NCBI GenBank assembly: GCA_003598025.1
Contig: QZKH01000003.1
Location: forward strand, 106,048-170,047
Origin: Candidatus Omnitrophota bacterium
GTDB lineage: Bacteria; Omnitrophota; Gorgyraeia; Gygaellales; Profunditerraquicolaceae
DNA length: 64,000 bases
Direction: 5' to 3'
Below are positions 9,170-33,597 of this stretch, piece by piece (the stretch's first letter is position 1; each line of letters begins with the position of its first letter). The position numbers and the translations under genes are program-made. The notes beneath the pieces are model-generated. The model made no database searches and was not told the DNA's origin. It saw only the letters and a program-made list of their open reading frames with translations.

Positions 9170-9176
9170 TTAGACC

Positions 9177-12908: not shown

Positions 12909-14753
12909 ATGAGTAGAATTTGTGGCGTAATATCATCAAATCTTATGGAGGAAACCAGTAGGTCTATTGTAAGCAGTATGAATAAGCTTATGCAACATGA
13001 AAGTTGGCATAGAATTGATGAATGGGTTAATCATTCAGTCGGATTGGGGCATATTAGTATAGAAGCAGTTAATGAGGAAATACAACCAATCTTTAATGAG
13101 GATCGGACTAAGGCAATAATATTTGCAGGGAAGATATTTGCCTACGAGGAAGATAAGAAATATTTGATTGATAGGGGACATAAATTTATTTATTTTGATA
13201 ATGACGCTGAATTTATTTTACACCTATATGAAGAATATGGAGTATCGAAATTTAGGATGTTAAATGGGATTTTTAGTTTTTTTATTTGGGATAATTTACG
13301 AAAAAAAGCAATTTTAGTTAATGATAGATACGGAATGAGGCCTATTTATTATATGAATGACAGAAATAAAAAGATTCTACTGTTTAGTTCTGAGCTAAAG
13401 GCTATATCAAAACAGCGTACCTTTGAGAAGAAGATCGATTGGGAAGCGTGGAATATATTTTTTAGGCTAGGTTTCTTAACAGGCGAAGACACATTTTATA
13501 AAAATATTAAAGTCCTTCCTAGTGGGTCGGTGCTTTATTTTTATGAGGATAATCTTAGCATCGAAAATTATTGGTCTTATAATGATATTTCTGTAGCTGC
13601 TAATCAGAATTTATCAACCTACATAGATGACGTAACCTTTTTGTTCAAACAATCAATGAAACGCAGATTACTACCGGAAAAGAAAATTGCTTTATTTCTT
13701 AGTGGAGGGCTTGATTCGCGTGGTATAGCCATAGAGTTAAAAAATAATAAAATACCATTTGAGACTTTTACTACAAGCAAATTTACTAGTCTCGATAGAG
13801 ATAAAAATCTCGCTAGTCTTATTGCTCAAAAGATGAATGTAAAGAATCATTTCCAGGAGTTACCGGATAGCTTTTTGGATGATATAGAATGGCGTAAAAA
13901 CTATTTACTTGATTACGAAAGTGATGAGCATGGTTGGATTTTGCCATTATTGAATCAGGTTCCTTTAGATTTCAAGATTAATTACGATGGGATAGCTCAA
14001 GATACTATTTGTGATTCTCTCTTATTTCGTGATGAAAATTATATATATCTGGACATGCTAGAGTCCAAAAAATACGAAGATTTTATATATTTCTGGGTAT
14101 ATCAAAAACAATTTAAATTTGTAAAATGGTCTAAAAATGACAATAATAATTTTAATTTTTTTTGCCCTAATATTAGAAAATTTTTCTCAGATGAAATATT
14201 CTTCGACAATCTTGAAAAGCATTTAATTAAGTATGAAGGTAGTCCAAATCAATTTATTTTTTTTCAATTGGATAATAGAACAAGAAGGGAAATTTCGTTA
14301 GCCCCATTCCAGTTAATAGTTAATAAATTAGAGAGTTTTTGCCCATATTTAGATAATGACTATTTTGAATATATTATTTCATTGCCACGTTTTACCAAGC
14401 GAAATCAAACATTAAGAAGCAAACTTATAAATGAATTAAATCCTAATTTTTGCGGGTATAATGAAAGCAATTATATTAGTAAATATAGCGATGTTTATAA
14501 AAAGAAATTAAAGTTTCTTGTTTCTATTGAAAAAACACTTCTCAAAAATAGTTTTTTTGATTTGAATAATTCTAATTTTCTTCTAAGAAAATTTTTATCG
14601 GATTACTTACTGATGAAGATGGGTTTGTTGATGGAAAGTATTGAAAAAGATTTGTATTTAAAAAGTAGCTTTAATTTAATTTTTCCACTTTATTTCTTTA
14701 ACAAATGGTTAGCTAATGAAGGGTTTGGTAAGGATGATATATTGATAAGCTAA
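12909..14753 (+). CDS. asparagine synthase (glutamine-hydrolysing)-like amidotransferase
   Basis: AsnB-like layout with an N-terminal Cys region 'SRICGVIS', a central 'LSGGLDSR' PP-loop and 614 aa. It lies in a very AT-rich cassette. Confidence 0.7.
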   Translation: MSRICGVISSNLMEETSRSIVSSMNKLMQHESWHRIDEWVNHSVGLGHISIEAVNEEIQPIFNEDRTKAIIFAGKIFAYEEDKKYLIDRGHKFIYFDNDAEFILHLYEEYGVSKFRMLNGIFSFFIWDNLRKKAILVNDRYGMRPIYYMNDRNKKILLFSSELKAISKQRTFEKKIDWEAWNIFFRLGFLTGEDTFYKNIKVLPSGSVLYFYEDNLSIENYWSYNDISVAANQNLSTYIDDVTFLFKQSMKRRLLPEKKIALFLSGGLDSRGIAIELKNNKIPFETFTTSKFTSLDRDKNLASLIAQKMNVKNHFQELPDSFLDDIEWRKNYLLDYESDEHGWILPLLNQVPLDFKINYDGIAQDTICDSLLFRDENYIYLDMLESKKYEDFIYFWVYQKQFKFVKWSKNDNNNFNFFCPNIRKFFSDEIFFDNLEKHLIKYEGSPNQFIFFQLDNRTRREISLAPFQLIVNKLESFCPYLDNDYFEYIISLPRFTKRNQTLRSKLINELNPNFCGYNESNYISKYSDVYKKKLKFLVSIEKTLLKNSFFDLNNSNFLLRKFLSDYLLMKMGLLMESIEKDLYLKSSFNLIFPLYFFNKWLANEGFGKDDILIS

Positions 14754-14798
14754 ACGCTAAATTAAAGTTGCTTATATTTATTACTTTACCTCTACTTT

Positions 14799-15698
14799 AT
14801 GAATTATTCATTTATTTCAATAGTTATTGCTGCTTTTAATGAAGAAGATAATATCCCTAGTCTGATTGATTCACTATTGGCTTTAGATTATCCTAAGAAG
14901 AATTTTGAGATAATTATTGTTGATAATAATTCAAAAGATAATACTTATAATATTTTATCTAAGTATCCTACTATAAAAACATTAAAACAAATAAAAAAGG
15001 GAAAACCAGCAGCTATTAATTTAGGGATATTATCATCAAATGGAGAAATTATAGCTAATACAGATGCAGACTGTATAGTTGATAAACACTGGTTGCTAAA
15101 TATTAACAAATCATTTGAGGATAAAGCTATAGGGATTGTCGCTGGTCCTATAAAGAAAGCATGTCCGAGAAACATGTTGGAGAAATCATATTCCTTACGT
15201 GACGAAGACTTTAAGGTGACTATGAATCTAATTAAATTTCAAGGAGGGGCTAATTTGAGTTTCCGAAGAGATGTTTTGAATATGGTGGGTTTCTTTGATG
15301 AAACATTACTAAGAGGGCAAGACCTAGAGATATGTGAGAGAGTGCAGCTAAAGACGTCTTATAAATTTAAATATTTTGATGATGTTATTGTTTACACTAG
15401 ATATCCACATACCATTAAAAGATTGCTTCAGACATCGATAGGAGATGCCTTTGGGAAAGAGTTACTAGATAAAATGAATAATAAAAGTCATAATATTGCA
15501 TTACACGTTATTAAATTATTCGAAGAGATTATATATTCAATTATTCAAATATTCGCTAAGTTTTTTAGTAAAAATAAAGAAAACAAAATCGAGAGCTATT
15601 ATAAAGATCTATATGAAATTATTCGATCCTTTGGGAGATTTTTTGGCCATTTGAGAGGTCACTATTATTTTTTAAAAAATATTTTTTTTAAAAATTAA
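14799..15698 (+). CDS. family 2 glycosyltransferase
   Basis: 'ISIVIAAFNEEDNIPSLIDSLLALDYP...EIIIVDNNSKDNT' GT2 signature and a DxD-type 'TDADC'. Confidence 0.75.
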   Translation: MNYSFISIVIAAFNEEDNIPSLIDSLLALDYPKKNFEIIIVDNNSKDNTYNILSKYPTIKTLKQIKKGKPAAINLGILSSNGEIIANTDADCIVDKHWLLNINKSFEDKAIGIVAGPIKKACPRNMLEKSYSLRDEDFKVTMNLIKFQGGANLSFRRDVLNMVGFFDETLLRGQDLEICERVQLKTSYKFKYFDDVIVYTRYPHTIKRLLQTSIGDAFGKELLDKMNNKSHNIALHVIKLFEEIIYSIIQIFAKFFSKNKENKIESYYKDLYEIIRSFGRFFGHLRGHYYFLKNIFFKN

Positions 15699-15706
15699 CG
15701 AATTCT

Positions 15707-16894
15707 ATGAATATATGTTTAGTTTCACGAGAATATCCTCCAGAGCAGGGTGGTGGTATATCTACATACATATATAATCTTGCGCATGGATTACAAGCTT
15801 TAGGTTACAAGGTATTTGTAGTATCCTCAACAGAAAATGAGAGTATTTCTTTTGAAGATAGGGGCGTTATTATATATAGAATTAAAAGGCCATATTTAAA
15901 ATTCCTAAGTTTCCTTGAAGATATTTTCCCTTTAAGAGCCTTTCTTTATAGCATTGATGTTGCGAAGAAAATAAGATATCTTGAGTTATCAGAGAATATT
16001 GACTTGATTGAATTTCAGAATTGGTATGCCGAAGGTTTTTGGTATTTGTTATTTAAACATACTCGCCCTGTTGTTATCCGATTGCATACACCATATTTTG
16101 AAATTTTACGAATAAAGAACCTTATTCCTAGGATAAAGGACAGGCTTATATGTTGGTTAGAAAAAACAGCTGTTAAAAAAAGTGATTTTATTACAACTTC
16201 TACTGTTTTCCATAAAACATTTATGTCTAATGAATATAATATAGAACCTGATAAGATAAAGGTGATACCTCTAGGTGTAGATGTTGAATCAAACGATGAA
16301 TCAAACGATGAATCAAACGATACGTATTTTAATCCTGGAGATGATAAATTTAATGTGTTATTTTTAGGAAGGCTTGAAAAGAGGAAAGGTATAGATGTGT
16401 TGTTAGAGGCGATACCTTATGTTATTGGGCAGAAGCAAGAGATTAATTTTTACCTTGTAGGTATAGATAAGAATGAATATTTTGAGAAAGAATTTAAGAA
16501 GAGATATTCTAATCGATATGAAAATAGTGTGCATTTTATTGGATATGTAGGTAAACCTCAAAAAGAAAACTTTCTTAGAAAGTGCGATTTATTCGTTGCT
16601 CCTTCTTTGTACGAATCGTTTGGTTTTGTTTATATCGAGGCAATGAGATATGGCAGACCTGTTATTGGTTGTAACGGTATTTCGGCCCAAGAGATTATCG
16701 AGCATAACAAGAGCGGTTTTTTGATTCCCCCTAACAATGTGGAAGCTCTTGCTAAAATAATACTTGAGTTATTCGATGATAAGGTTAAGAGGGAAAAGGT
16801 TGGAATGGAGGCACGTGCCAAAGTTAAGTTACAATATTCAAGAGAAAAAATGGCTGAAGCAACAGCCACTTTTTATACTTCTATATTCAAATGA
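15707..16894 (+). CDS. family 4 glycosyltransferase (GT4, Glycos_transf_1)
   Basis: C-terminal EX7E-type motif 'ESFGFVYIEAMRYGRPVIG'. It contains an (ESND)x3 tandem repeat. Confidence 0.8.
   Translation: MNICLVSREYPPEQGGGISTYIYNLAHGLQALGYKVFVVSSTENESISFEDRGVIIYRIKRPYLKFLSFLEDIFPLRAFLYSIDVAKKIRYLELSENIDLIEFQNWYAEGFWYLLFKHTRPVVIRLHTPYFEILRIKNLIPRIKDRLICWLEKTAVKKSDFITTSTVFHKTFMSNEYNIEPDKIKVIPLGVDVESNDESNDESNDTYFNPGDDKFNVLFLGRLEKRKGIDVLLEAIPYVIGQKQEINFYLVGIDKNEYFEKEFKKRYSNRYENSVHFIGYVGKPQKENFLRKCDLFVAPSLYESFGFVYIEAMRYGRPVIGCNGISAQEIIEHNKSGFLIPPNNVEALAKIILELFDDKVKREKVGMEARAKVKLQYSREKMAEATATFYTSIFK
16286..16321 (+). repeat. 12-nt tandem repeat x3 (gaatcaaacgat) encoding ESNDESNDESND inside the GT4 gene
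   Basis: perfect direct triplication visible in the sequence. Confidence 0.8.
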
Positions 16895-18987
16895 GAACAA
16901 GAACCCCCAAAATAAGTGTAATCATACCAACATATAATCGTGCTAATTATATTAGCGTTGCGATTCACAGCGTTTTGAACCAAACATATCATAACTGGGA
17001 GATAATCGTAATTGATGATGGGTCTAATGATTCAACAAAAGAAGTAATTCGTCCGTATTTAGATAATATTTCTTATTTTTATCAGAACAATCAAGGAGAA
17101 GCTTCTGCTAGAAATATCGGGATAAATAGATCTAAGGGAGAATTTATCGCTTTTTTAGATAGCGATGATTTGTGGCTCCCGGATAAACTAAAAATACAGA
17201 TCTCCAGATTAGAAAGTAATGATCAATTATCATTAACATATTGTCGCGCTAAGATGATTGACTCACATGGAATATTTATGGGTTATAAGCCTACTACCCC
17301 TGCATTATCCACACGAGATTTTCTTTATGGGGCGAGATTGCCTATGACTGTTTTGGTAAAAAGAAAAGTATTTGATGAAGTAGGTTTGTTTGATACTAAT
17401 ATTAAAGTCGGAGTTGATACAGATTTATGGTTACGATTAAGCATGGATCATAAAATTGATTATTTAGATGAACCGCTAGCAGTTATAAGAGCTCATAATG
17501 ACAATATTTCAATTGATAAAAAAAGTATGTATCTAGGATCAATAAACACATTGAATAAGTTAATTAGCAACAAAATTGTTAATAATTTTGATAAACGAGA
17601 GCTCAATAATCTACTTGCCAAACAATATTATCTCTTAGCACGCGAGTGTAATTATACATATAGGGAGAGAAAATCTGCATTTAGCTATTGTTTTTCTGCA
17701 TTAAACTTAAATCCAAGTGTAGGAAAAATGCTTATTAACAAAAAAGATGATAATTTGCTGAAATATAAGAAGTTGCTTAACCCGTATTTTTTCTTATTTT
17801 ATACATTCTTCACAAGATTGCTGAGTACTAATAAATTAATTAAACAATCAATAAATATTCTGTTTTATGATCCTTCTTCAGGATACGGTGGTTCTGGAAA
17901 GTCATTATCATTACTTATAAATAATCTTAATGAAATGAATTTCTCGTCATTTGTGTTAATAAAAAACTTTGGACCACAATTTACGAATATAAAAAATGCG
18001 AAGATTGTAAAAATAAAAAACACGCCTAATCCAAGACGACAGAATATAATCGCATTTTTTGGATACATTATTCCAGAAGCAATTAGGATTTTCTTTATTT
18101 TAAAGCTAAATAATATAAGAATTGTTCATGTTAACACAAATATACTTTCAGGGCTTGCCCCTATTATTGCTGCTCGAATAGCAGGCGTTCCCTGTATTTG
18201 TCATATTAGGCTATCGAGAAATTTAATTAAGAGAGAAATTTTATTTTCTTATTGGATTGATCATGTAATTGTACTTAATATTAATACTTTTAAGATGTAT
18301 CGAAAGTATTTCTTAGAAGAGAGAATTAGCCTTATTTATGATGGTCTAAGTATGGATAATGAGAATTTGAATAATACTAATGCTATAGCTAGATGCGAAT
18401 TCTGTTATAATTCCGAATTTTGTGTAGGAATTATTGGAAGAATTGTTGAAGGTAAAGGCCACAAGGAATTTATATTAATGGCTCAGAAAATATTAGAAAA
18501 AAACAAAGCTGTAAAATTCTTAATAGTAGGGGAACCAAAAGGAGATTATGAAGACTACTTTATTCAGGTGGTTAAACTGGTAAAAGAAAGAAATCTGTCC
18601 GATAAAGTTATATTTACTGGCTGGAGAAATGACATTAATAATATAATATCTGGCTTGGATGTTCTTGTTCAGGCTAGTACAACTTTTCCTGAAGGTTTTG
18701 GGTTAACTATAATTGAAGCTATGGCGATGGGTAAAGTAGTTGTAGCCACTAATATTCCTGGTCCGTCAGATATTATTGTTAATGGAGAAACAGGCTTTTT
18801 AGTCCCACCTGGTGATATTAACTTGATGGCGGATAAAATATTGTATCTTCTTTGTAATCCAGATGTCGCTAGAAAAATGGGTGAAGCTGGTAGAAATCGT
18901 GTAGAAAAATTTTTTGCTATAAAAAATACTGTTAAGAGTATTGAAGAAATTTATATGGGGGTATTATTAAGGAAGAGACAACGATGA
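16891..18987 (+). CDS. bifunctional glycosyltransferase (N-terminal GT2 + C-terminal GT4 domains)
   Basis: N-terminal 'ISVIIPTYNRANYISVAIHSVLNQTY...IIVIDDGSNDST' and 'DSDD'. The C-terminal GT4 motif is 'EGFGLTIIEAMAMGKVVVATNIPG'. Confidence 0.75.
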   Translation: MRTRTPKISVIIPTYNRANYISVAIHSVLNQTYHNWEIIVIDDGSNDSTKEVIRPYLDNISYFYQNNQGEASARNIGINRSKGEFIAFLDSDDLWLPDKLKIQISRLESNDQLSLTYCRAKMIDSHGIFMGYKPTTPALSTRDFLYGARLPMTVLVKRKVFDEVGLFDTNIKVGVDTDLWLRLSMDHKIDYLDEPLAVIRAHNDNISIDKKSMYLGSINTLNKLISNKIVNNFDKRELNNLLAKQYYLLARECNYTYRERKSAFSYCFSALNLNPSVGKMLINKKDDNLLKYKKLLNPYFFLFYTFFTRLLSTNKLIKQSINILFYDPSSGYGGSGKSLSLLINNLNEMNFSSFVLIKNFGPQFTNIKNAKIVKIKNTPNPRRQNIIAFFGYIIPEAIRIFFILKLNNIRIVHVNTNILSGLAPIIAARIAGVPCICHIRLSRNLIKREILFSYWIDHVIVLNINTFKMYRKYFLEERISLIYDGLSMDNENLNNTNAIARCEFCYNSEFCVGIIGRIVEGKGHKEFILMAQKILEKNKAVKFLIVGEPKGDYEDYFIQVVKLVKERNLSDKVIFTGWRNDINNIISGLDVLVQASTTFPEGFGLTIIEAMAMGKVVVATNIPGPSDIIVNGETGFLVPPGDINLMADKILYLLCNPDVARKMGEAGRNRVEKFFAIKNTVKSIEEIYMGVLLRKRQR

Positions 18988-20435
18988 ATAGATATAATGA
19001 TTCTAATAGACTTGGATTTTCTTGGGGCGATTTAAGAATGTTTTTGGCTTTTGTTTCAGTTGTTATTTTCTTTGGGATTATTGTACAAGCAGATTTTGAA
19101 ATACCCAGGGCTATACTTTATCCATTTTTTATTTTAGCTTTCTTTCTATTGCTTTCTAAAGGATTTAAAAAGCCAGAGATATGTATTTATGCATTAGTAA
19201 CATATGTGCCTTTCAGCAAAATTCTTGTTGGTGATTTTGGTGGGATGATGACCGCGTTAAACTTTACGAATATTTTGACTATTATAATGATTGTAACTTG
19301 GATTTTTGGTAATGTGTCGCAGAATAAGAAAGTTTATACACGTACATCGTTGGATATTCCGCTTTTAATTTTTATATTTTTTGGATGTTTCTCTTTAATT
19401 AAAGGCACGTTTTATTTTGGCGCCGATTACGCATTTAGTTTTATAACTCCTTTAAAAAGATGGCTCACTCCACTGTTTTTCTTTTTTATTGTTTTTAATA
19501 TAGTAAAAGACAAAAAAACAATAAAAAATATTATTTTGTTAATGATGGTAGTGTTGACAGTGGTTGCATTGATGGCTATAAAAGATTATATCGATGTTGG
19601 GAGTACAGCTAGCTTAGAGAAGTCGAGAATCGGTAGTATAGCACAACAACCAAATATCCTAGCTGCTTTCTTTGTGTATTATATGTTTCTTTTTGCTGGT
19701 TTTATGCTAATTTACTGGAACAATGTTAAGTTTTGGTTGCTTAGTTTTCCTTTTTTGCTTTGTTTTAGAGGTATGCAGGTCACTTTTTCTAGAGGAGGTT
19801 ATCTTGCTTTTGCTGCCGCAGCTTTAACAATAACTTTTTTCAAAAATAAGATTTTGTTTTTTATTATTGCTTTTCTTTTGATATTAACTGTCTTAAATCC
19901 AGCCTTTTTGCCAAGCGGAATAAAGTACAGAATCTCATCAACTTTCACTAAAGACCAGATATATTCTCCAACTCTTGAAGAGACTATAGATAAAAGTTCA
20001 GCTACTAGGATTGCCATATGGAAAGGTGGACTAGAAATGATAAAGGAGCATAAATGGTCTGGAGTTGGGTATGGAGTATTTCCTCATTTAATACCTTATT
20101 ATGCCCCTGAAGTTGGTAAAGTGGATGCTCACAATACATACATTTTGATTGCAGCAGAAATGGGAATTTTTGCTCTTTTAGTGTTTTTATTTATATTGGG
20201 AATAATATTCAAGAATACTTATAAATTATATCGACTCACAAGGGATAAGTTTTTTAAGGCCATATCGTTAGGCTTTCTAGGAAGCTTGGGTGGTGTTTTG
20301 GTTGCGAATATTTTCGGTGGAAGGCTTGACTCACAAGAAGTTAGTAGTTACTTTTGGATTTTAGCTGCTTTAATTTTTAGAGCACTATACATAGAAAAAC
20401 ATGATTATAATTCAAAGTTAAATCATGCGAAATAA
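18984..20435 (+). CDS. O-antigen ligase / Wzy-like polymerase family membrane protein
   Basis: About 11 predicted TM helices with a periplasmic loop region (Wzy_C-like) in the C-terminal third. Confidence 0.6.
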   Translation: MNRYNDSNRLGFSWGDLRMFLAFVSVVIFFGIIVQADFEIPRAILYPFFILAFFLLLSKGFKKPEICIYALVTYVPFSKILVGDFGGMMTALNFTNILTIIMIVTWIFGNVSQNKKVYTRTSLDIPLLIFIFFGCFSLIKGTFYFGADYAFSFITPLKRWLTPLFFFFIVFNIVKDKKTIKNIILLMMVVLTVVALMAIKDYIDVGSTASLEKSRIGSIAQQPNILAAFFVYYMFLFAGFMLIYWNNVKFWLLSFPFLLCFRGMQVTFSRGGYLAFAAAALTITFFKNKILFFIIAFLLILTVLNPAFLPSGIKYRISSTFTKDQIYSPTLEETIDKSSATRIAIWKGGLEMIKEHKWSGVGYGVFPHLIPYYAPEVGKVDAHNTYILIAAEMGIFALLVFLFILGIIFKNTYKLYRLTRDKFFKAISLGFLGSLGGVLVANIFGGRLDSQEVSSYFWILAALIFRALYIEKHDYNSKLNHAK

Positions 20436-22848
20436 CATTTTGATTATAGTAGATAATCTCGCAGCTGGTGGAGCCCAAAGGCAGATTATCGAATATTTAA
20501 AACTTGCTGATAAAAACATTTTTTATTTTAAAGTGGTAAACTTGGATTCAGATGTAACGATTCTGGAAAACGATATAAAACAAATAGGCCTCGAAGTCAT
20601 TAATATCCGTCATAAGGGCTTTTTTAACCTCTCAACTTTATTTAAATTATATAAGATTATAAAGTATGAAAAACCGGCAATCGTGCACACCTTTTTATTT
20701 ACCTCTGACCTATATGGCCGTATTGCAGCTAAATTAGCAGGAATACCTGTAATAATAAGCTCGGTTCGTAACATTGATAAGTGGCAGAAATGGCACCATA
20801 GGCTTGCAGACCGGATTTTGGCGAATGTTACGGATAAAATAACTATTAATGCAGAGTGTATCAGGCCTTATCTTGTGAATACAAAGAAACTCCCTAAAGA
20901 AAAAATTGTTACTATTTATAATGGTATAGATTTGAACAGGTTTGATAATTTAAGAGAGCCTAAGAGCATAAAAGCAGAACTGTGTATTTCGGATAAAGCT
21001 TTAATGGTCGGTATGGTTTCGCGTTTCTCAGAACAAAAGGATTATGATACTCTTCTAAAGGTAGCTCAGGAGATATCAAAAGAGCGGGAAGATGTATATT
21101 TTGTGTGTGTTGGGGATGGTAAATTAAAGCCGATACTCGATTCTCGATTCTCGATACGACCAAAGGGAGTCCTGAGCGAAGCCGAAGGACGCGATACTCG
21201 AAATATAAAGTTCACCGGCCTACGTTCCGACATCCCAGATTTGATTAACGCTATGGATATATGCGTATTATCCAGCCATTATGAGGGTTGTCCTAATGTT
21301 ATTTTGGAATACATGGCTTGCTCAAAACCGGTAATTGCTTCAAATGTTGGCGGATGCGCAGAATTAGTAGCAAATGGTAAGTCCGGTTTTATTGTGCCCC
21401 CAGGAGACATAAATTCCTTAAAAGACAAAATTGTTCTTCTGCTTGATGATAAAGAATTAAGGCTCAGAATGGGCAAAGAAGGCAGGGGGTTAGTTGAGGC
21501 TAAATTCATTTCGCAGAGAATGGTAAAAGAAACAGAAGGCTTATACAAACAATTATTGAACCCTAAAATCGCCTACATCCTTTCCCAATTCCCCGAAACT
21601 CACGAAACTTTCATATTAAGGGAGATAAAGGCACTTAAAGAGAAGGGCGTTGATGTTAAGATTATATCGCTAAAGAAGTGTAGGGACAGAGTTATACATG
21701 ATGAAGCTAAGGAATTTATAAAAGATACGATATATGCTGATGTTAGCGTATTGCGTATTGCGTGTAGCGTATTGAGCAAACCATTAAGATCCTTGGGTGC
21801 GTTGGGGTATGTTTTGAGGAGCTATTTCGGCAAGCCGTGGGAATTTGTTAAAGCGATGTATGTTTTGGCTGAATGCTTGAGTATTGCCCCGATGCTAAAA
21901 AAGATGCGCATAAAGCATATGCATAGCCACTGGGCAACCATGCCGACTACTGCTGCAGTTATCCTCAATAAATTAACGGGCATACCTTTCAGTTTTACTG
22001 CTCATGCCTGGGACCTGTTTATTGATTGCGACGGCTTGGAAGAGAAAATCAATAAGGCAAGGTTTGCTGTTACTTGTACCGGGTATAACAAGAATTTCAT
22101 GGGGTATTTTTGTAATAATGGCCAGGCGGATAAGGTGTATCTTAATTATCATGGATTGGATCTTAGTAAATATGTGGGGGGTCAGGGATTCAAGGAATCG
22201 AGGAATCAAGAGAGTAAATATGTGCGGGATCCACAGTCCGCAATACGCGATACTCAATACGCAATACGCACGACGCAATACGATAAGATATCTATTCTGG
22301 CAATTGGTAGGCTTGTAGAAACTAAAGGATTTGAGTATCTAATTGAGGCGTGTGGGATGTTGAAAGAAAGAGGGATTGATTTTGAGTGCTTTATTGTTGG
22401 ACAAGGACCATTAGAGAAGCGTTTAGCGTATAGCGTAGAGCGTATAGAGTTAAAAGATAAGATTAAATTCTTGGGATTGCAGACGCAGGAGCAGATAAAG
22501 AAGTTGTTTAGCGATGCAAGCGTATTAGTCCAGCCTTCGGTTATGGCCGGTAACGGCGATAGGGATGGCATTCCTAATGTGATTATAGAAGCTATGGCTT
22601 TGGGTGTTCCGGTTATTTCAACTAATTTTTCAGGTATACCAGAAGTAGTCATTGATAAAAAGACAGGTATTTTAGTCCAGGAGAAAGATAGTAATGAACT
22701 TGCCAACGCCATTGAGAACCTGCATAAGGATTGCTATTTGACGGATAAGATAATCAAAAATGCCAGGGAACATGTTGAGAAGAAGTTTAATATAGATACT
22801 AATGTTAGGGAGTTGATAGAGATATTTAGAAGTAATGGAGTATTATGA
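20425..22848 (+). CDS. tandem double GT4 glycosyltransferase carrying four in-frame repeat-module insertions
   Basis: Two Glycos_transf_1-type units, with GT4 motifs at 'EGCPNVILEYMACSKPVIAS' and 'GIPNVIIEAMALGVPVIST'. The inserts are at 21131-21200, 21745-21776, 22231-22287 and 22419-22449. Confidence 0.75.
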   Translation: MRNNILIIVDNLAAGGAQRQIIEYLKLADKNIFYFKVVNLDSDVTILENDIKQIGLEVINIRHKGFFNLSTLFKLYKIIKYEKPAIVHTFLFTSDLYGRIAAKLAGIPVIISSVRNIDKWQKWHHRLADRILANVTDKITINAECIRPYLVNTKKLPKEKIVTIYNGIDLNRFDNLREPKSIKAELCISDKALMVGMVSRFSEQKDYDTLLKVAQEISKEREDVYFVCVGDGKLKPILDSRFSIRPKGVLSEAEGRDTRNIKFTGLRSDIPDLINAMDICVLSSHYEGCPNVILEYMACSKPVIASNVGGCAELVANGKSGFIVPPGDINSLKDKIVLLLDDKELRLRMGKEGRGLVEAKFISQRMVKETEGLYKQLLNPKIAYILSQFPETHETFILREIKALKEKGVDVKIISLKKCRDRVIHDEAKEFIKDTIYADVSVLRIACSVLSKPLRSLGALGYVLRSYFGKPWEFVKAMYVLAECLSIAPMLKKMRIKHMHSHWATMPTTAAVILNKLTGIPFSFTAHAWDLFIDCDGLEEKINKARFAVTCTGYNKNFMGYFCNNGQADKVYLNYHGLDLSKYVGGQGFKESRNQESKYVRDPQSAIRDTQYAIRTTQYDKISILAIGRLVETKGFEYLIEACGMLKERGIDFECFIVGQGPLEKRLAYSVERIELKDKIKFLGLQTQEQIKKLFSDASVLVQPSVMAGNGDRDGIPNVIIEAMALGVPVISTNFSGIPEVVIDKKTGILVQEKDSNELANAIENLHKDCYLTDKIIKNAREHVEKKFNIDTNVRELIEIFRSNGVL
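21131..21200 (+). repeat. in-CDS insertion of repeat module F (ctcgattctcgattctcgatac...)
   Basis: Encodes DSRFSIRPKGVLSEAEGRDTR, which interrupts the conserved GDGxL...FTGxRxD GT4 segment. Compare the uninterrupted paralog at 24100-24190. Confidence 0.7.
21745..21776 (+). repeat. in-CDS insertion of repeat module C (gcgtattgcgtattgcgtgtagcgtattg)
   Basis: encodes SVLRIACSVLS. Confidence 0.6.
22231..22287 (+). repeat. in-CDS insertion of repeat modules D+C (ccacagtcc gcaatacgcgatactcaatacgcaatacgcacgacgcaatacg)
   Basis: encodes PQSAIRDTQYAIRTTQYD. Confidence 0.7.
22419..22449 (+). repeat. in-CDS copy of repeat module C (reverse complement of ctatacgctaaacgctatacgc)
   Basis: gcgtttagcgtatagcgtagagcgtatagag, encoding RLAYSVERIE. 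Confidence 0.6.
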
Positions 22849-22935
22849 GCTTTCAGCTATCAGTCGTCAGCTATCAGCAATGGATGATAAATCTGAGCTG
22901 TCAGCTTTCAGTTGTCAGATTTCATCTAAAGGAAG
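22849..22935. repeat. mosaic repeat (module B: agctNtcag runs)
   Basis: gagctttcagctatcagtcgtcagctatcagc ... gagctgtcagctttcagttgtcag. Confidence 0.75.
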
Positions 22936-22939
22936 ATAA

Positions 22940-23311
22940 ATGAAAGAGCAGAAGTTTAGAAAATTAGACGTTTGGAATAGGGCTATGGATTTTATTGGAG
23001 AGATTTATAAAGTTACTTCCAATTTCCCTTCAACAGAGATTTATGGTCTAAGCGCACAATTAAGAAGAGCCGCGATATCAATTTCATTGAATATAGCTGA
23101 AGGTAGTGGTTCTGGCTCTGATCCCGAATTTAACAGATTTCTAAATATTTCGTTAAGGTCAGCATACGAAGTTATGTGTGGCATTGAGGTAGCTTGTAAG
23201 TTGGATTATTGTGATAAAACCATCGCTGAGAAGTTATTAAATGAATGCGATGAACTTTCGGCAATGATAACTGGACTGAAAAGAAAGTTAATCGGTTCTT
23301 CACACAGCTGA
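22940..23311 (+). CDS. four-helix-bundle protein (23S rRNA IVS protein family), second copy
   Basis: 'FRKLDVWNRAMDFIGEIY...GLSAQLRRAAISISLNIAEG'. Confidence 0.8.
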   Translation: MKEQKFRKLDVWNRAMDFIGEIYKVTSNFPSTEIYGLSAQLRRAAISISLNIAEGSGSGSDPEFNRFLNISLRSAYEVMCGIEVACKLDYCDKTIAEKLLNECDELSAMITGLKRKLIGSSHS

Positions 23312-23340
23312 AAGCTGAAGACTGATGACTGATAGCTAAT
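23312..23340. repeat. short module-B repeat remnant
   Basis: gaaagctgaagactgatgactgatagct. Confidence 0.5.
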
Positions 23341-23341
23341 A

Positions 23342-24526
23342 ATGAAACTAAATGTGCTATATATAATTTGGAGTTTAGGCCTTGGTGGCGCAGAGCGGGT
23401 GGTTATTAACCTGGCTAAAGGGCTTGATAGGGATAAATTTAAGTCGATAGTCTGCTGCCTTAATTCTAAGGGCAAATTTGCAGATGAGCTTGAGAAAGAA
23501 GGTATCAGGGTAATAGAATTAAAAAAGAGATGGAAATTTGACTTTAGTGTCATAAAAAAGCTCATTGAAATAATAAAAGAGAATAAAATAAATATTGTGC
23601 ACACACATCTATGGGGTGCGAATTTCTGGGGAAGATTAGCAGCACAAAAGGCAAGTGTGCCTGTGATAATATCCACAGAGCATAATTCTGATACCTGGAA
23701 GACCCCGCTGCATTTTGTCATAGACAGGTATTTAGCAGCTAAGACAGACAGGATAATCGCGGTATCAAAGAGTGTCAAAGAGTTTTATGTTAAGAATGTG
23801 GGGATCCCTTCTGGGAAAATAGAGGTGATTTATAATGGCATAAGTATATCAGAGCACAGATCACAGATCACAGAGCACAGTAAATCACATTCCGTCCACA
23901 GTCCACAGTCCACAGTCCACAGTCAGGATAACTATATTCGTAAACAATTGGCTATCAGTCCTGATGAGACAGTAATAGCTATGATTGGTAGATTGGTGCC
24001 GCAGAAGGGGCATAAGGATTTCTTGTTAGCCTTAAAGGTCCTTACCGGATGCGGATTTAAGGTCAAAGGTTTAATTGTCGGCAGCGGCCCTCAAGAAATG
24101 TATTTGAAACAGGTGTGTGATAACCTTGCCCTTAATGGAAATGTTATTTTTACCGGTGTAAGGAGCGATATCCCGGAACTGTTTAAGGCAATAGATATGA
24201 TTGCTCTTCCTTCAACAAGGGAAGGTTTTCCTATGATTATATTAGAGGCTATGTCTGCAGGAGTACCTGTGGTTGCTTCAAGCGTTGGAGGGGTCCCTGA
24301 AGTTATAACTAACGGTTTTAACGGGCTTTTAGTTGAGCCTGAGAACCATACTGAGTTAAAAGCTGCTTTCGCTAAGTTAATCCATGATGAGCGGTTATCT
24401 AATAGCCTAATAGATAACGCTCGCGCTACAGTAGCAAAAGAATTTAATTTGAGGAATATGATCGATAGCACACAGGGGCTATATGAAAAGATTTATGAAA
24501 GCAAATTGCCTAAGGCGGATAAATGA
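23342..24526 (+). CDS. family 4 glycosyltransferase with in-frame repeat insertion
   Basis: 'GGAERVVINLAKGL' GT4 N-terminus; 'EGFPMIILEAMSAGVPVVAS' EX7E motif. Confidence 0.8.
   Translation: MKLNVLYIIWSLGLGGAERVVINLAKGLDRDKFKSIVCCLNSKGKFADELEKEGIRVIELKKRWKFDFSVIKKLIEIIKENKINIVHTHLWGANFWGRLAAQKASVPVIISTEHNSDTWKTPLHFVIDRYLAAKTDRIIAVSKSVKEFYVKNVGIPSGKIEVIYNGISISEHRSQITEHSKSHSVHSPQSTVHSQDNYIRKQLAISPDETVIAMIGRLVPQKGHKDFLLALKVLTGCGFKVKGLIVGSGPQEMYLKQVCDNLALNGNVIFTGVRSDIPELFKAIDMIALPSTREGFPMIILEAMSAGVPVVASSVGGVPEVITNGFNGLLVEPENHTELKAAFAKLIHDERLSNSLIDNARATVAKEFNLRNMIDSTQGLYEKIYESKLPKADK
23860..23927 (+). repeat. in-CDS insertion: cacagatcacagatcacagagcacagtaaat...gtccacagtccacagtccacagtccacagtc
   Basis: Encodes SEHRSQITEHSKSHSVHSPQSTVHSQ. 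The unit gtccaca is repeated 4x, and the same composite recurs at 27771-27894. Confidence 0.8.
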
Positions 24527-27500: not shown

Positions 27501-27654
27501 TGATTACACGGTAAGGCACCAGAAGGCAAGCACTGACCCGTTATTTGACGGCATGATTTACCAAAAAGCATATTATGCAAGGGTAATGGAATATTTGTAC
27601 AACTTACCGTTTGCTTTTGAGGGATTGGCACAAGATGAAAAAACCGGAAAATAA
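24523..27654 (+). CDS. large exported/membrane-anchored protein of the polysaccharide locus (candidate glycan-modifying enzyme; family not recognised)
   Basis: 1043 aa. N-terminal signal anchor 'IAFVLIFVAGILFAGL', then a beta-rich region and a Trp/His-rich C-terminal region. Confidence 0.45.
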   Translation: MKNKRLNIAFVLIFVAGILFAGLSYAVLTKTKPLINKIKSKVKERVIANIPKAKDPLVICDFENSADLDKWNASKASVEISEEHPTSGKYSAKLTYEPSGDSSSVRIEKYFEKDRRIVNWSGYEALVFDIYNPNKNAERMILQVRDNSGGKVKIDLHLRPNANNRIEVDIRSLWDKLNPSKIDQLNLFLWGNKSVKAFYLDSVMLLPAAALEKVAKSISDDEFIPKEGEQVYALGDYLEFNKARWGSCEDGVSVPIYINNFTTAKLNSTVVRGGVPFGRGQLNSLDKLMLNDGAGNNIEFQAQIVSKWPDGSIKWALISFKPEVDAATIKKYNLVYSNAISRKKQESALKVDEGLKNIAINTGKIKLVIPKSGFYLYDKLWLDKNNDKKFDDSEIVSSKASLVLERDGKKYYSHLDKNYRLTVEKSGPLEACIKAEGWFVADNGKKYCKFIVRIHAYELSGEIKLQHTFVYTGYPENKYHYLYKGKRLPRNETIDAVYIELPVKIDGDKAVTFAADDKIMQSAFGGAISFLQLKPDSYTVTGSGKPIGSGNRLEGWLDLSSDGYGVSIGVKDFWQQFPKGFSVDKEAGKLKIDLWPKEAGKLDLKTTQKAYGPDAVARGSAFGLAKTHDLAFNFHNGNYEVGEVKNKIRSLLSDVVITSDPIWVSDTRVLGRIWPYDTRFKSAESFLSKLFDWGSRQVDKFSWYGMIDFGDTLSWYRKEAYDKSYDDWGWHPEGRHGWFNCEGVGTHAGALIQFLRTGNYKYYIFGKNLSRHIMDIDTCHYNTVANDSRLRGRIPEDYSRPGSMHRHNADHWGGRNEETSHTNVYGLVLYYYLTGNERARDVIDEVGSFFLKEHMTYFGHPDISPQRSIANVIWGDVVLYELTGEKKYKEQADKLVNLFFRGQKYNGAWPENYNPVRKRWEGKPHLSFMSQYTIPALINYHMITGNKAIAGCIINATDFLIESDEYGAILDALSYSYWLTGDKKYKDTLNKKLDYTVRHQKASTDPLFDGMIYQKAYYARVMEYLYNLPFAFEGLAQDEKTGK

Positions 27655-28459
27655 GAAAAAGTCTATACTAATGTACCACTCTGTGGGTTTTCCTGTTTTG
27701 GGGGATCCGGGTAACGGACTGTATTGTGTAAGTAAGGAGAATTTCAGGGAACAGATGCAATACATTACACAGGTCACAAAGACACAAAGTCACAAGGTCA
27801 CAGAACACAGTAAATTTGATGAAGTCCACAGTCCACAGTCTACAGTCCACGGTAAATTGGATGCTGTGGTCCGTCGACCGTCGACCGTCGACTGCTTAAT
27901 AACCTTTGACGACGGGGATGTGACGAATTTTACACAGGCTTATCCGGTATTAAAAGAACTGGGATTAACTGCGTATTTCTTTATATTAGCCGGCAAGATC
28001 GGCTCATCGGGCTATATGAGCTGGGGACAGATAAAAGAAATGCATGATAATGGCATGATTATCGGTTCGCATGGCATGACACATAGGATAATGCCCGCAC
28101 TATCCGATAAAGACATCAGGTATGAAATAAACACTTCAAAGGAATTCATTGAAGGCAAGCTTAAAACAAAGATTTATTATTTTTCGATACCGCGCGGATT
28201 CTATAATAAGAAAATATTGGGGATGCTGAAAAAAGCAGGATATAAAGGGGTTTTTACATCAGACTCCGGCAGGATAAATGATTATGAATTCGGCAGGATA
28301 GCGATCAGGAGCAATTGGGGGATAGGCCAGTTTAAAAAAGTATTGGAACGCGGGCCAAGCGTAAAAGATAAGCTTGAAGGAAGGCTTCGTAAGTCAGCGA
28401 TCAATTTGATAGGCATAAACAATTACGATAAATTAAGGATGGGATTGCTAAAGAAATGA
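27635..28459 (+). CDS. polysaccharide deacetylase (NodB homology domain) with N-terminal in-frame repeat insertion
   Basis: 'ITFDDGDVTNFTQAYPVLKELGLTAYFF...GSHGMTH' NodB motifs. ATG at 27635 after RBS gaggga; alternative TTG at 27611. Confidence 0.8.
   Translation: MKKPENKKKSILMYHSVGFPVLGDPGNGLYCVSKENFREQMQYITQVTKTQSHKVTEHSKFDEVHSPQSTVHGKLDAVVRRPSTVDCLITFDDGDVTNFTQAYPVLKELGLTAYFFILAGKIGSSGYMSWGQIKEMHDNGMIIGSHGMTHRIMPALSDKDIRYEINTSKEFIEGKLKTKIYYFSIPRGFYNKKILGMLKKAGYKGVFTSDSGRINDYEFGRIAIRSNWGIGQFKKVLERGPSVKDKLEGRLRKSAINLIGINNYDKLRMGLLKK
27771..27894 (+). repeat. in-CDS composite repeat insertion (modules H-D-G)
   Basis: gtcacaaagacacaaagtcacaagg, cacagtaaat, gtccacagtccacagtc, gtggtccgtcgaccgtcgaccgtcgac. 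Encodes QVTKTQSHKVTEHSKFDEVHSPQSTVHGKLDAVVRRPSTVD. Confidence 0.8.
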
Positions 28460-29229
28460 AGATATTATTCTGGGTTTCACTGTTGGTAATAATTTATGTT
28501 TATCTCGGGTATCCGTTATTGGCGTACCTGTTTTCGCTGCTTTATAAAAAACCATTAGCCGCAAAATATGTTTATCCGACGGTATCTATCTTGATTTCGG
28601 TCCATAATGAGGAGATAAATATCCGGAATAAGATTAATTCTTTGATGGAACTTGATTATCCGCAGGATAGATTAGAGATTATTTTCGGGTCGGATGGGAG
28701 TACGGATGGCACCGAAGAAATAATAAAACGAGATATTGAGGCCACAAGGCCACAAGGTCACAAGGTCACATTAGTAAGGCAGGAGAAGAGGCTGGGGAAG
28801 CCGAGCATGCTGAATAAGCTGGTAAAAGAAGCCAAAGGAGAAATCCTTGTCTTTACCGATGCCAGGCAGAGGTTGGACAATAATGCCTTAAAAGAGCTGG
28901 TCAAGCATTTTGCCGACGGAAAAGTTGGCTCGGTCAGTTCAGAGTTGATTTATGAGGATGAATCGCCGGAAAATAAGTCTTCAGGCGGAATTAACCTTTA
29001 TTGGGAATATGAAAAGTTTATCCGTAAAAGTGAATCACGCATGGGCTCTATGCTTGGGGCGACAGGCGCTCTCTATGCGATAAGAAGCAAGCTCTTCCCG
29101 GGGCTGCCTGAGGATATGATATTGGATGATGTTTATATCCCCATGAAAATTGTTGAAAAGGGCTATCGTGCGGTATTTGACTCTAAGGCCAAGATTTATG
29201 ATAAGGTATTCAGCGCGACCCGAAGATAG
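28456..29229 (+). CDS. family 2 glycosyltransferase, catalytic portion (apparently truncated by a frameshift near 29200-29245)
   Basis: 'YPTVSILISVHNEEINIRNKINSL' GT2 N-terminus, 'DAR' region, then a stop after ...FSATRR. Confidence 0.6.
   Translation: MKILFWVSLLVIIYVYLGYPLLAYLFSLLYKKPLAAKYVYPTVSILISVHNEEINIRNKINSLMELDYPQDRLEIIFGSDGSTDGTEEIIKRDIEATRPQGHKVTLVRQEKRLGKPSMLNKLVKEAKGEILVFTDARQRLDNNALKELVKHFADGKVGSVSSELIYEDESPENKSSGGINLYWEYEKFIRKSESRMGSMLGATGALYAIRSKLFPGLPEDMILDDVYIPMKIVEKGYRAVFDSKAKIYDKVFSATRR
28741..28770 (+). repeat. in-CDS insertion of module E (gccacaaggccacaaggtcacaaggtcaca)
   Basis: encodes ATRPQGHKVT. Confidence 0.7.
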
Positions 29230-29243: not shown

Positions 29244-29624
29244 GTGCGCACACTGGCAGGGAATTTCCAGTTATTTTATTACCTCAAAGAGTTATTTAAT
29301 CCATTCAGGGGCAAAATATCCTGGCAGTTTTTTTCACATAAATTTTTAAGGCTGATTATTCCGCTATTCCTGGCACTGCTATTATTATCCAGCGCCTTTT
29401 TATTTAACGAGCCGTTTTATAGATTATTTTTATTTTCTCAGGAGGCGTTTTATATCTTTGCTATACTCGGTAAATATTCAAAGCGCCGCAATAAAATTTT
29501 CGATGTTCCGTATATGTTCTGTATTATGAATTATGCTGCGGTAATCGGTTTTTACCGTTTCTTAAACAATAAACAGGGGGTCCTATGGGAAAAGGCAGCA
29601 ACTTTGGATTTACGCAAAGCTTAA
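29244..29624 (+). CDS. C-terminal membrane segment of the GT2 (probable continuation of 28456-29229 in another frame)
   Basis: GTG-initiated 126-aa ORF. The upstream in-frame translation reads ...EFSRRVRTLAGNFQ, resembling the GT2 QxxRW/...GNxQ region, followed by TM helices. Confidence 0.4.
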   Translation: MRTLAGNFQLFYYLKELFNPFRGKISWQFFSHKFLRLIIPLFLALLLLSSAFLFNEPFYRLFLFSQEAFYIFAILGKYSKRRNKIFDVPYMFCIMNYAAVIGFYRFLNNKQGVLWEKAATLDLRKA

Positions 29625-32250: not shown

Positions 32251-32886
32251 ATGAAAAAATTAATATTTGTATTTGTCTTATTGATTTCACTCTTTATTTT
32301 TAATCAGGCTGATGCTTCTCTTTGGCTTGATGCTACACCTTCAATTTATATTAACAGCAATCCTGACCCGTGGTTTACGGATAGCTGGATAACCGGCCCG
32401 GGTGATTTTACTCTCAGGATTACAAACACTTTTACTCAAGATGATATTGAGGATGTTTATCTCGTTATCGCTTTGAAAGAAAGCACAAAAGATGGGTTAT
32501 CTATTGATATAGACGGAGACGGGCTTGATGATAGTGATTTTGATACTTCCGGAGATCATCCGTATATCACGGATTCGCACGGAGTTTTCGGCGACGATAC
32601 ATATTTCTATGATTATTATATCGGGAACCTTGCCGCAGAAGAGTATATTGAATTTGATATATCAATAGAAACAGAGGGTTCTCCTATCGTGCATTTTGAC
32701 GCATACGGTTATAAAGTGAAGAATAACGGCGATCTTTTATTGGTGGATAATCCCAATTCCCATGATGTAACCTGGGATCCTCCGTTGTATATTGAATTGA
32801 CCAATACCGTACCTGAACCGGCAACATTATCATTGCTTGGCTTAGGCATGATGGGTTTGCTTTTCTCAAGAAGGCGTAAATGCTAA
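32251..32886 (+). CDS. PEP-CTERM sorting-domain protein 1
   Basis: Signal peptide; C-terminal 'VPEPATLSLLGLGMMGLLFSRRRKC'. Confidence 0.85.
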   Translation: MKKLIFVFVLLISLFIFNQADASLWLDATPSIYINSNPDPWFTDSWITGPGDFTLRITNTFTQDDIEDVYLVIALKESTKDGLSIDIDGDGLDDSDFDTSGDHPYITDSHGVFGDDTYFYDYYIGNLAAEEYIEFDISIETEGSPIVHFDAYGYKVKNNGDLLLVDNPNSHDVTWDPPLYIELTNTVPEPATLSLLGLGMMGLLFSRRRKC

Positions 32887-33584
32887 AGTTAATAAGTATA
32901 GTTTTAGCTATTCTGGTATTGACGATCGCGATAAGCGCGGATATTTACGCTTATACGGTTACTTATCTTGACCCTTATTCCAGCGCAACCACGCTTTACA
33001 GCGCAGCAGGGGACAGGATAGGCAATATAGCGTTTGAATTATATAAAGTTGACGTAACAAAAGCAGGAAACAATCTTACCTTTGATATCTATTCAAATTA
33101 CTCTTCTTCAGGATATTCTGTAGGTTCATGGCATACAATGCCTGCTGACCTGGCGCTGGATGTAAATAATGACGGGACATATGACTATGGTGTGGCATTC
33201 CGTAATCACGACGGCTTAATACAAGGTAAGCTTTATTCAGTTTCGGATTGGTACATTTCAGGCTATGACCGGCCGGGTAATGGTTTCATCTGGCATCACG
33301 GAGAATTAGTCAGTATAAAGGATATTGATGCCGAACTTGGCGATGCTGCAGTTACCTGGAATGATTTAGGCGGCAGCAACCCGCATTACAAAATAAGCAC
33401 AGTTATTGATATGAATGATTTCTTACCTAACGGTTACAGCGGAGATTTAGGTTTTTTCTATGGCGGTGCAACATGCGCCAATGATTACATAGGCGGGATA
33501 TTTTCAATAACAACCCCTGAGCCTGCATCGTTATCTTTGTTCGGCTTAGGATTACTCGGTTTAATAATACGCAGGAAGAAATAG
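32880..33584 (+). CDS. PEP-CTERM sorting-domain protein 2
   Basis: Signal peptide; C-terminal 'TPEPASLSLFGLGLLGLIIRRKK'. Confidence 0.85.
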   Translation: MLKLISIVLAILVLTIAISADIYAYTVTYLDPYSSATTLYSAAGDRIGNIAFELYKVDVTKAGNNLTFDIYSNYSSSGYSVGSWHTMPADLALDVNNDGTYDYGVAFRNHDGLIQGKLYSVSDWYISGYDRPGNGFIWHHGELVSIKDIDAELGDAAVTWNDLGGSNPHYKISTVIDMNDFLPNGYSGDLGFFYGGATCANDYIGGIFSITTPEPASLSLFGLGLLGLIIRRKK

Positions 33585-33597
33585 GAAAGGAGAGGAT

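Follow-up and report, generated by a model that had tools for sequence, protein, structure and literature searches.

How do short tandem repeats that lie between the genes of a bacterium come to stand, in frame, inside its conserved enzymes? The question is raised by a 64,000-nucleotide stretch of Candidatus Omnitrophota DNA (contig QZKH01000003.1 of assembly GCA_003598025.1, positions 106,048 to 170,047; hereafter the window). Its plus-strand polysaccharide locus (9177-40705) encodes glycosyltransferases of the GT4 and GT2 types, a NodB-type deacetylase and an epimerase that carry such repeats. A sequence-only reading of the window had proposed that modules identical to the intergenic ones are inserted into these genes, with the Rickettsia palindromic elements (RPEs) as precedent. 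Our analysis partly confirmed the observation and lent partial support to its interpretation. We estimate a probability of about 75% that the segments are tandem arrays of 7-nt (some 8-nt) units, of the type of the short tandemly repeated repetitive (STRR) sequences and long simple sequence repeats (SSRs), drawn from the intergenic unit families of this genome and copied into or overwriting permissive parts of the enzymes. The in-frame arrays are genuine, occur across the lineage and represent a variant of a known repeat class rather than a mobile element of the Rickettsia type.

Arrays with a period of 7 were far more frequent in the window than in shuffled sequence. At a score of 8 or more, 34 were found compared with 2.0 expected from dinucleotide shuffles, and at a score of 10 or more there were 21 compared with 0.3, an excess of ~17- to 70-fold. 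Period-8 arrays numbered 9 (2.5 in the shuffles), and periods 4-6 and 9-12 were at background level. Tandem Repeats Finder (TRF) reported arrays of period 7, and a few of period 8, with 3-12 copies at every in-gene site that had been named previously and at dozens of intergenic ones. The unit families in the window are yATGAAC, AATACGC, AGCTGTC, GTCCACA, TCACAGA, AGAATCK, CCGTCGA and the octamer GTCACAAR. Non-coding DNA makes up ~9% of the window; of the 43 arrays listed, 23 lie entirely within it and 2 more straddle gene edges. Between genes, the arrays form hairpin arms, adjoin ribosome-binding sites (RBSs; upstream) and stop codons (downstream), and bracket cassettes that encode PF05635 proteins. 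Three intergenic hairpins with TAGTTCA/TGAACTA arms, one listed in Table 1 and the others at 44116-44215 and 53020-53110, gave folding z values of -3.8, -3.9 and -7.3, and 0 of 200 shuffles folded as well. A longer intergenic composite, which we refer to as the super-element, shows the fixed module order AGCTGTC > CTGTGGW > AGATTCT > ATACGCM > TTTGTGWC > AGATACTTTATCTAT > CTATGAAC. An inverted copy of it at 44567-44692 matches over 85 nt at 91% and over 66 nt at 86%.

The arrays inside open reading frames (ORFs) belong to the same families. All eight in-ORF segments gave best local alignment scores of 19-30 with intergenic sequence, compared with a maximum of 14-17 over 40 control coding segments, which argues that these are the modules found between genes. 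The matches extend over 22-48 nt at 80-100%, so the relationship claimed in the sequence-only reading stands as common families and composites with strong similarity, not as identity. For example, two sites of the double GT4 match intergenic arrays in reverse complement, site 2 an array within 7693-7869 at 28/31 nt and site 4 one within 9062-9182 at 29/33 nt, and the GT2 array is identical to intergenic 44608-44630 at 22/22 nt. Arrays of the module families are concentrated in four adjacent polysaccharide genes, with 11 in 5.2 kb compared with none in ~50 kb of other coding sequence, the weak epimerase case excepted. TRF placed them at 21131-21155, 21746-21774, 22239-22282 and 22418-22447 in the double GT4 and at 27773-27802, 27823-27850 and 27871-27892 in the deacetylase. 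The coordinates that had been put forward as inserts correspond to the extents of arrays (70, 32, 57, 31 and 68 nt) and not to insertions or deletions.

The composition of the arrays differs from site to site. In GT4, CAGAGCA x4.4 (91% by TRF, 23850-23880; the unit is also written CACAGAK) is followed by a GTAAAT-containing spacer and by GTCCACA x4.4 at 100% (23894-23924). The segment encodes SEHRSQITEHSKSHSVHSPQSTVHS and the alignment indicates a linker ~17-18 aa longer than in typical orthologs. The deacetylase insertion falls between YITQVT and VDCLITFDDG and consists of the 8-mer GTCACAAR x3, CACAGAA, a GTAAAT spacer, GTCCACA x3.6, GCTGTGG and CCGTCGA x3.1, which gives the module string E3 H1 D3 d1 G3. 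A 59-nt composite that is 83% identical, non-repeat spacer included, is common to the GT4 and deacetylase segments. The module order E>D of the deacetylase is the reverse of the intergenic d>e and is colinear with the reverse complement of the super-element. The GT2 array contains AGGCCACA/AGGTCACA x4 and encodes ATRPQGHKVT. In the double GT4, the units at site 1 replace and extend the helix after GDG, which has 28 aa compared with the canonical 18. Site 3 contains GGAATCRA-like 8-mers, one CCACAGTC unit and then an AATACGC array x6, together encoding GQGFKESRNQESKYVRDPQSAIRDTQYAIRTTQYD, and site 4 encodes the canonical 18-aa helix after GQGP (KRLAYSVERIEL).

The amount of added sequence was estimated by comparison with L020, a contig from Hainich groundwater with the same gene order, proteins 45-77% identical and almost no heptamer arrays. 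Relative to L020, the deacetylase carries a clean addition of 108 nt (36 aa), GT2 is longer by 18 nt (6 aa), site 3 of the double GT4 by 81 nt (27 aa) and site 1 by 30 nt (10 aa, as a replacement). As had been suggested, several sites thus show added or varying protein length, by +6 to +36 aa. Three of the eight proposed inserts (21745-21776, 22419-22449 and the epimerase) are not insertions. Sites 2 and 4 have the same length in L020 (0 nt change), and site 2 is identical to it at 20/32 nt by a by-eye count. The epimerase differs by only +6 nt, located upstream of its array, and L020 has a degenerate array at that place, which makes the epimerase of the window a weak case with no new insertion. 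All the net length differences are multiples of three, as intact ORFs require. The earlier claim that the reading frame is kept is accordingly borne out at the repeats, whereas the GT2 frame is broken downstream of its array (29215-29225) in a manner unrelated to the repeats.

The junctions and the relatives provide additional information on these sites. True orthologs of the deacetylase show a pure insertion. Replacement of a native strand-helix, considered from deacetylase-GT4 fusions, was rejected because the fusions belong to another subfamily with 26-32% identity. At the deacetylase and GT2 junctions no target-site duplication is evident and the native flank resembles the repeat unit; the native GT2 sequence of L020, AGGCGCAAGAATG, is already similar to the octamer. 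At the position of site 1, L020 has a degenerate AGCTGTC-like array (by eye) and another related locus, L002, has GAAGGGC x4.4. An in-frame repeat of another kind, GGGGACAGGCCCC...GGGGACTGTCCCC (peptide GQAPAGTVP), is present in L020 at 8880-8925, 9990-10025 and 11095-11150 of its own sequence. These are the same linker hot spots, and their occupation by a different repeat indicates that the sites are permissive.

Table 1 Coordinates of repeat features and host genes in the window.
Feature	Position	Strand	Basis or remark
Deacetylase insertion, 108 nt / 36 aa	27780-27887	+	DNA and protein alignment to L020
GT4 interdomain-linker arrays	23850-23924	+	TRF, ortholog alignment, AlphaFold2
GT2 octamer array	28739-28770	+	TRF, L020 alignment
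Double GT4 site 1	21131-21200	+	CGATTCT-type array and GAAGGAC-like units
Double GT4 site 2	21745-21776	+	GCGTATT-type array encoding SVLRIACSVLS
Double GT4 site 3, second GT-B interdomain linker	22182-22287	+	alignments
Double GT4 site 4	22418-22449	+	AGCGTAT-type array
Epimerase array	9315-9343	+	four xxTGAAC units encoding NEQSTMNFEL, variable loop
ORF-less intergenic hairpin, arms TAGTTCA / TGAACTA arrays	374-460	.	RNA fold
Reference intergenic composite (super-element)	47292-47498	.	fixed module order
PF05635/TIGR02436 four-helix-bundle gene 8707-9066 with inverted GCGTATA / TATACGC arrays	8659-9157	+	absent from L020
Second PF05635 gene 22940-23311 with inverted AGCTGTC / GACAGCT arrays	22845-23343	+	absent from L020
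Epimerase	9177-10166	+	Pfam/NCBIfam
Double GT4	20425-22848	+	Pfam/NCBIfam
GT4	23342-24526	+	Pfam/NCBIfam
NodB-type deacetylase	27611-28459	+	Pfam/NCBIfam
GT2	28456-29229	+	Pfam/NCBIfam
PcRGLX-like protein	in polysaccharide locus	+	Pfam/NCBIfam

The locations of the added residues were examined on AlphaFold2 models of two host proteins. The GT4 model had a mean predicted local distance difference test score (pLDDT) of 90.6 and a predicted template modelling score (pTM) of 0.86. Its sole internal stretch below 50, residues 174-192, is the insert, which the model places between strand 160-162, the last of the N-domain, and helix 194-202 leading into the C-domain. In the deacetylase model (pLDDT 84.7), low values are confined to the N-terminus and to residues ~61-93; the latter are again the insert, between the N-terminal helix 42-69 and strand 95-101 carrying TFDDG. 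In both models, therefore, the inserts sit in the only internal loops predicted to be disordered. No splicing motifs or catalytic RNAs (Rfam) were found that would make the inserts inteins or introns, and they are low-complexity peptides without intein blocks.

Which strand of an array is translated appears to depend on stop codons and on the peptide. Since a heptamer array in frame runs through all three phases, it yields one 7-residue repeat per strand. In 5 of the 9 tabulated heptamer units, and likewise in the two octamer variants, a stop codon falls on one strand, and the genes use the open strand only. The unit AATACGC, open on both strands, is read as NTQYAIR in the disordered linker at site 3, and the hydrophobic AYCVLRI type occurs at sites 2 and 4, where orthologs have hydrophobic or helical sequence. 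Relative to transcription, the arrays in genes have the orientation opposite to that of the intergenic ones (D versus d, b versus B), which argues for selection on the peptide and not on an RNA signal. Four in-gene segments gave folding z values of -0.13, -0.82, +0.20 and +1.37 against shuffles and so have no structure beyond chance.

The phenomenon extends well beyond this genome. Period-7 arrays, but not those of periods 5, 6 and 9, are abundant in many related loci, and 47 of 64 such arrays in related metagenome loci lie inside ORFs, mostly the GT4 and deacetylase orthologs. Three hot spots recur: the linker between the GT-B domains, the helix that follows GxGP and, in the deacetylase, the loop after FREQMQY and before TFDDG. 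The deacetylase loop is hypervariable, with 0 to ~60 extra residues over 39 orthologs, many of them visibly repeat-coded, including QSHKVTS and the QGHKVT seen in the window. The units are specific to each genome and match its own intergenic arrays, such as GTCCACA in L003 and L006, AAAACGC in L008 and GGACGAA in L002. Of the 17 GxGP-helix segments found, 16 are 18 aa long, although the units that encode them include AAGTCTC x4.5 (SLKSQVSSLKL) in L021, GTCTCAG x4 in L004, AGCTATC in L017 and GTCCACA in L003. In L004, L006, L017 and L021, paralogous helices within a genome have DNA identities of 0.63-0.91 compared with 0.28-0.46 for their flanks. Between genomes, the orthologous helices are no closer than their flanks (0.46 versus 0.51). 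As judged from these identities, the homogenisation of paralogous helices is best described as concerted evolution at constant length.

A search for exact copies of GTCCACA x3 gave at least 120 stretches, with ~0.07 expected by chance in 596 Gb (an estimate). The matches listed included Verrucomicrobiota, Bacteroidota, Planctomycetota, Omnitrophota, Cyanobacteria (Microcoleus, Trichormus), Acidimicrobiia and others. In other genomes, the peptide STVHSPQST stands in frame inside PurD, GatA, LpxB, MiaA, Sua5 and an ORF resembling a class I aminoacyl-tRNA synthetase (Pfam). The concentration in surface-polysaccharide genes that had been pointed out thus holds within the window and is not a general rule, as carriage of GTCCACA by housekeeping genes makes in-frame arrays not peculiar to polysaccharide genes.

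We propose that pieces of arrays or composites were copied into or over the linker between the GT-B domains, the surface helix that follows GxGP, the loop ahead of NodB motif 1 and a GT2 loop. They may have spread by microhomology-seeded template switching, or by ectopic or out-of-register gene conversion between arrays, with local slippage possibly contributing. Microhomology is invoked because at the deacetylase and GT2 junctions the native flanking sequence is similar to the units. Purifying selection would then pass only versions with a net 3n length, a stop-free strand and a peptide suited to the site, so that hydrophilic orientations would end up in linkers and amphipathic ones in helices. 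The outcome would be loops of hypervariable length and sequence in surface-polysaccharide enzymes, and latent frameshift switches.

Several points weigh against this proposal. The comparator L020 is a single 21-kb contig of low coverage (4x). Its site 4 keeps the array in both peptide and DNA although L020 is otherwise poor in arrays: the peptide KRLADSVERIELKD is also present there, encoded by near-identical DNA. Such conservation is less expected of a neutral passenger than of ordinary sequence under constraint or of a nucleic-acid signal. The in-gene fraction of 47/64 is biased, because all the related loci were collected around GT4 genes. The mechanism of spread is read from patterns only, and independent insertions that recur at permissive sites could look like conversion. 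Finally, a metagenome scan for alternative alleles of the same species found only relatives of at most 77% identity, which gives no sign of ongoing changes in copy number.

An alternative is that the 7- and 8-nt tracts are selected frameshift switches of surface-polysaccharide genes, that is, contingency loci as in the SSR genes of pathogens. The unit length is not a multiple of three and the hosts are surface-polysaccharide enzymes, as this would require. When one unit was added or removed in silico at each of the 11 arrays, a premature stop followed within ~3-60 codons in every case. Since a one-unit change truncates every host, the arrays are latent frameshift switches. Perfect arrays at constant length, such as AAGTCTC x4.5 in L021 and GTCTCAG x4 in L004, further imply repeated turnover of units, and the GT4 ortholog of L020 changes frame exactly at its GGGGACAGGCCCC...GGGGACTGTCCCC linker repeat. 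That ortholog, however, is the only frameshifted one, lies on the 4x-coverage contig and has a non-heptamer repeat; 21 of the 22 GT4 orthologs are in a single frame. Most tracts are imperfect and all are short: the longest perfect one in a gene is 31 nt (4.4 units), and the others have 1.9-3.1 units. The frameshift in GT2 is not at a repeat, and housekeeping genes, whose loss of function would be harmful, carry the same arrays. Short tracts and single-frame orthologs leave selected phase variation a minority hypothesis, which we consider unlikely.

It has also to be considered that the arrays are DNA or mRNA sites for binding or processing, for example by RNase III, a regulator of translation or the protein encoded by PF05635 genes, and that they lie in genes since the operon is nearly devoid of intergenic space. 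The genes across 11540-40705 indeed abut or overlap, arrays stand directly upstream of RBSs and after stop codons, and their association with PF05635 genes is strong. The segment 22413-22480, which covers the array helix of site 4 and the next strand, has ~91% nucleotide identity to L020 10147-10214 compared with ~70-75% for the rest of the gene (by-eye count). A post-transcriptional role has been proposed for the TAACTGA repeats (MacGregor 2015, PMC4679880). Yet the orientation in genes is the reverse of that between them, stop codons and peptide tolerance fully explain the choice of strand, the unit families at one site differ between genomes and the in-gene segments lack RNA structure. We therefore regard a role as nucleic-acid signals as rather improbable.

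Transposition into genes of a discrete non-autonomous element, retained where it lands in frame in a loop, would resemble the RPEs or the MITEs, which are miniature inverted-repeat transposable elements. It would account for extra peptides that are in frame and predicted to lie in loops, as well as for a multi-module composite common to two genes. The intergenic copies do make inverted pairs and hairpins, and the PF05635 cassettes with their inverted-array borders resemble mobile units. On the other hand, the pieces in genes lack terminal inverted repeats and are fixed neither in length nor in their ends, their net contributions are 0, 6, 18, 30, 81 and 108 nt and their module content varies. 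Their folding energy is no better than that of shuffles, they encode no conserved element peptide, and no transposase or REP-associated tyrosine transposase (RAYT) was found among the ten window ORFs scanned around repeats. Native helices are overwritten at constant length, which is impossible by transposition, and concerted evolution at constant length is likewise a pattern that transposition cannot produce. The analogy with RPEs drawn in the sequence-only reading consequently fails as a statement of membership (no fixed ends, no secondary structure with z from -0.8 to +1.4, no conserved peptide, net 18-108 nt for the insertions), and this explanation is quite improbable. That the segments are assembly chimeras or ordinary coding sequence resembling repeats is very improbable: the source is a metagenome-assembled genome (MAG) and sites 2 and 4 and the epimerase array are homologous, equal-length sequence in L020, but the 17- to 70-fold excess, the same phenomenon in independent NCBI, JGI, ENA and Logan assemblies, GT4 and deacetylase proteins identical with their inserts in another NCBI/JGI record (567-kb contig), and host models that fold with pLDDT 85-91 all speak against it.

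Copying of tandem arrays of the intergenic families into permissive enzyme segments remains the preferred explanation. A side observation concerns the PF05635 cassettes. PF05635/TIGR02436 is the "23S rRNA IVS protein, Avd-like" four-helix bundle, where IVS stands for intervening sequence. The window contains two such genes, the second lying between the double GT4 and GT4, and, both being absent from L020, they look like cassette insertions in the operon. In all the loci examined, 13 PF05635 genes were found, of which 12 could be scored. The complementarity of their flanks exceeded the 95th percentile of 221 control ORFs in 11 of the 12 and the control maximum in 7. Array-bracketed PF05635 genes come from MAGs labelled as several phyla and occur also in L135, L068, L077, L111, L019, L018 and L021. 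These observations recall how rRNA intervening sequences are built and suggest that the arrays are stems of a PF05635 cassette family. A broader and doubtful conjecture is that the heptamer arrays are stem arms of an IVS-like PF05635 cassette family in PVC bacteria, Bacteroidota, Cyanobacteria and others, spread by conversion and continuously rewriting permissive segments into heptad peptides. If true, the family would be a cross-phylum source of new enzyme linkers and amphipathic helices with built-in frameshift switching. We found nothing relevant to a link between PF05635 and repeats in the literature searched.

Additional features of the window were noted. Pfam and NCBIfam confirmed the domains of the host genes, whose ORFs are intact, and the closest named homologs of the window glycosyltransferase are from Candidatus Omnitrophota. 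An Rfam scan of the window returned tRNA only and no other known RNA family. The GC content falls to 27-35% over 11540-20435 (the wzx/wzy/GT part), where there are no module-family arrays, which is consistent with recently acquired DNA that arrays have not yet colonised. A 48-nt segment occurs in three direct copies (73-100%) at 32812-34182, spaced by ~620-700 nt at the ends of consecutive ORFs of ~200-230 aa, and probably encodes a C-terminal sorting or anchor motif shared by paralogous proteins. GT2 is split by a +2 nt frameshift near 29215-29225 relative to the 379-aa ortholog in L020, and its well-conserved C-terminal part continues in ORF 29244-29624. No repeat is present at the frameshift site, and a repeat-linked cause was rejected since the site is away from any repeat; the gene could be a recent pseudogene or reflect a sequencing error or recoding. 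Between the inverted composite copies 44567-44692 and 47357-47490 lie 2.6 kb with genes for LexA, a methyltransferase and a DUF2334-like protein, and on the basis of these genes a transposase or RAYT near the copies was rejected. The longest perfect tract of the window, CCATGAA x7.1 at 46180-46229, abuts the start of a minus-strand methyltransferase gene. A start-codon switch was considered for it and set aside, as the tract is more likely part of the 5' untranslated region, upstream of an AAGGA RBS and a TTG start.

Heptameric SSRs, known to be over-represented but treated as intergenic curiosities, are here translated parts of enzymes. This offers a testable route from non-coding repeats to new or remodelled linkers and helices in proteins. 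Read in frame, a period of 7 nt becomes one of 7 residues, which may suit amphipathic helices. The results also call for caution in the annotation and homology modelling of proteins from Omnitrophota and the PVC group, and they provide a lead on the associations of the enigmatic PF05635 "four-helix-bundle" genes. The literature searched contained no description of heptamer arrays in Omnitrophota or of the in-frame concerted occupation of enzyme sites.

The known repeats closest to those described here are the heptameric long SSRs and the cyanobacterial STRR family. The STRR sequences of heterocystous cyanobacteria likewise consist of head-to-tail 7-nt units, with several families per genome that are dispersed, mostly intergenic and often in inverted pairs. 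The Calothrix unit CAACAGT is one base from GTCCACA (= CCACAGT), and exact GTCCACA x3 is present in Microcoleus and Trichormus as well. What differs here is the Omnitrophota host, the fixed module order and the arrays in frame in enzymes at recurrent sites. Heptameric long SSRs are over-represented in bacteria according to Mrazek 2007 (cited in PMC4692102 and PMC4679880). In published accounts, heptameric repeats of all these kinds, including the GGGAATC repeats of Xanthomonas and Nostoc (PMC4692102) and the TAACTGA repeats of Beggiatoaceae, are mainly intergenic and under-represented in coding sequence, with 7-11% intragenic in Xanthomonas (PMC4692102). In marine Beggiatoaceae and some cyanobacteria, TAACTGA direct repeats are concentrated just upstream of start codons and have a patchy phylogeny (MacGregor 2015, PMC4679880). 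They resemble the present arrays in lying upstream of starts, in their patchy distribution and in a minority that overlaps ORFs, but their forward orientation stops all frames and the overlaps are mostly at gene ends, whereas here stop-free units are translated inside conserved domains.

The remaining systems resemble the arrays in single respects. RPEs are discrete palindromic elements of ~150 bp, and each of their ten families encodes a conserved peptide (PMC10969869). Like the present arrays, they are repeats shared with intergenic DNA that stand in frame in unrelated enzymes at fold-compatible positions; the segments here, by contrast, are tandem, variable in length, non-palindromic and able to replace native sequence at constant length. 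The rRNA intervening sequences with a PF05635 ORF, such as the Leptospira 23S IVS, also have their ORF enclosed by long inverted repeats, and the bacterial interspersed mosaic elements (BIMEs) built from repetitive extragenic palindromic (REP) sequences in enterobacteria also arrange short intergenic motifs as modular mosaics of conserved order. In our case, unlike in either, the stems are heptamer arrays, the cassettes lie in protein-coding operons and not in rRNA, and pieces occur in ORFs. Neisseria pgl glycosyltransferase genes carry heptanucleotide repeats. The tetranucleotide and heptanucleotide SSRs of H. influenzae are phase-variable contingency loci (PMC2651432). Contingency SSRs have in common with the arrays described here non-3n units in surface-glycan genes and truncation by a one-unit change, but the tracts here are short, degenerate, without observed length polymorphism and present in housekeeping genes as well.

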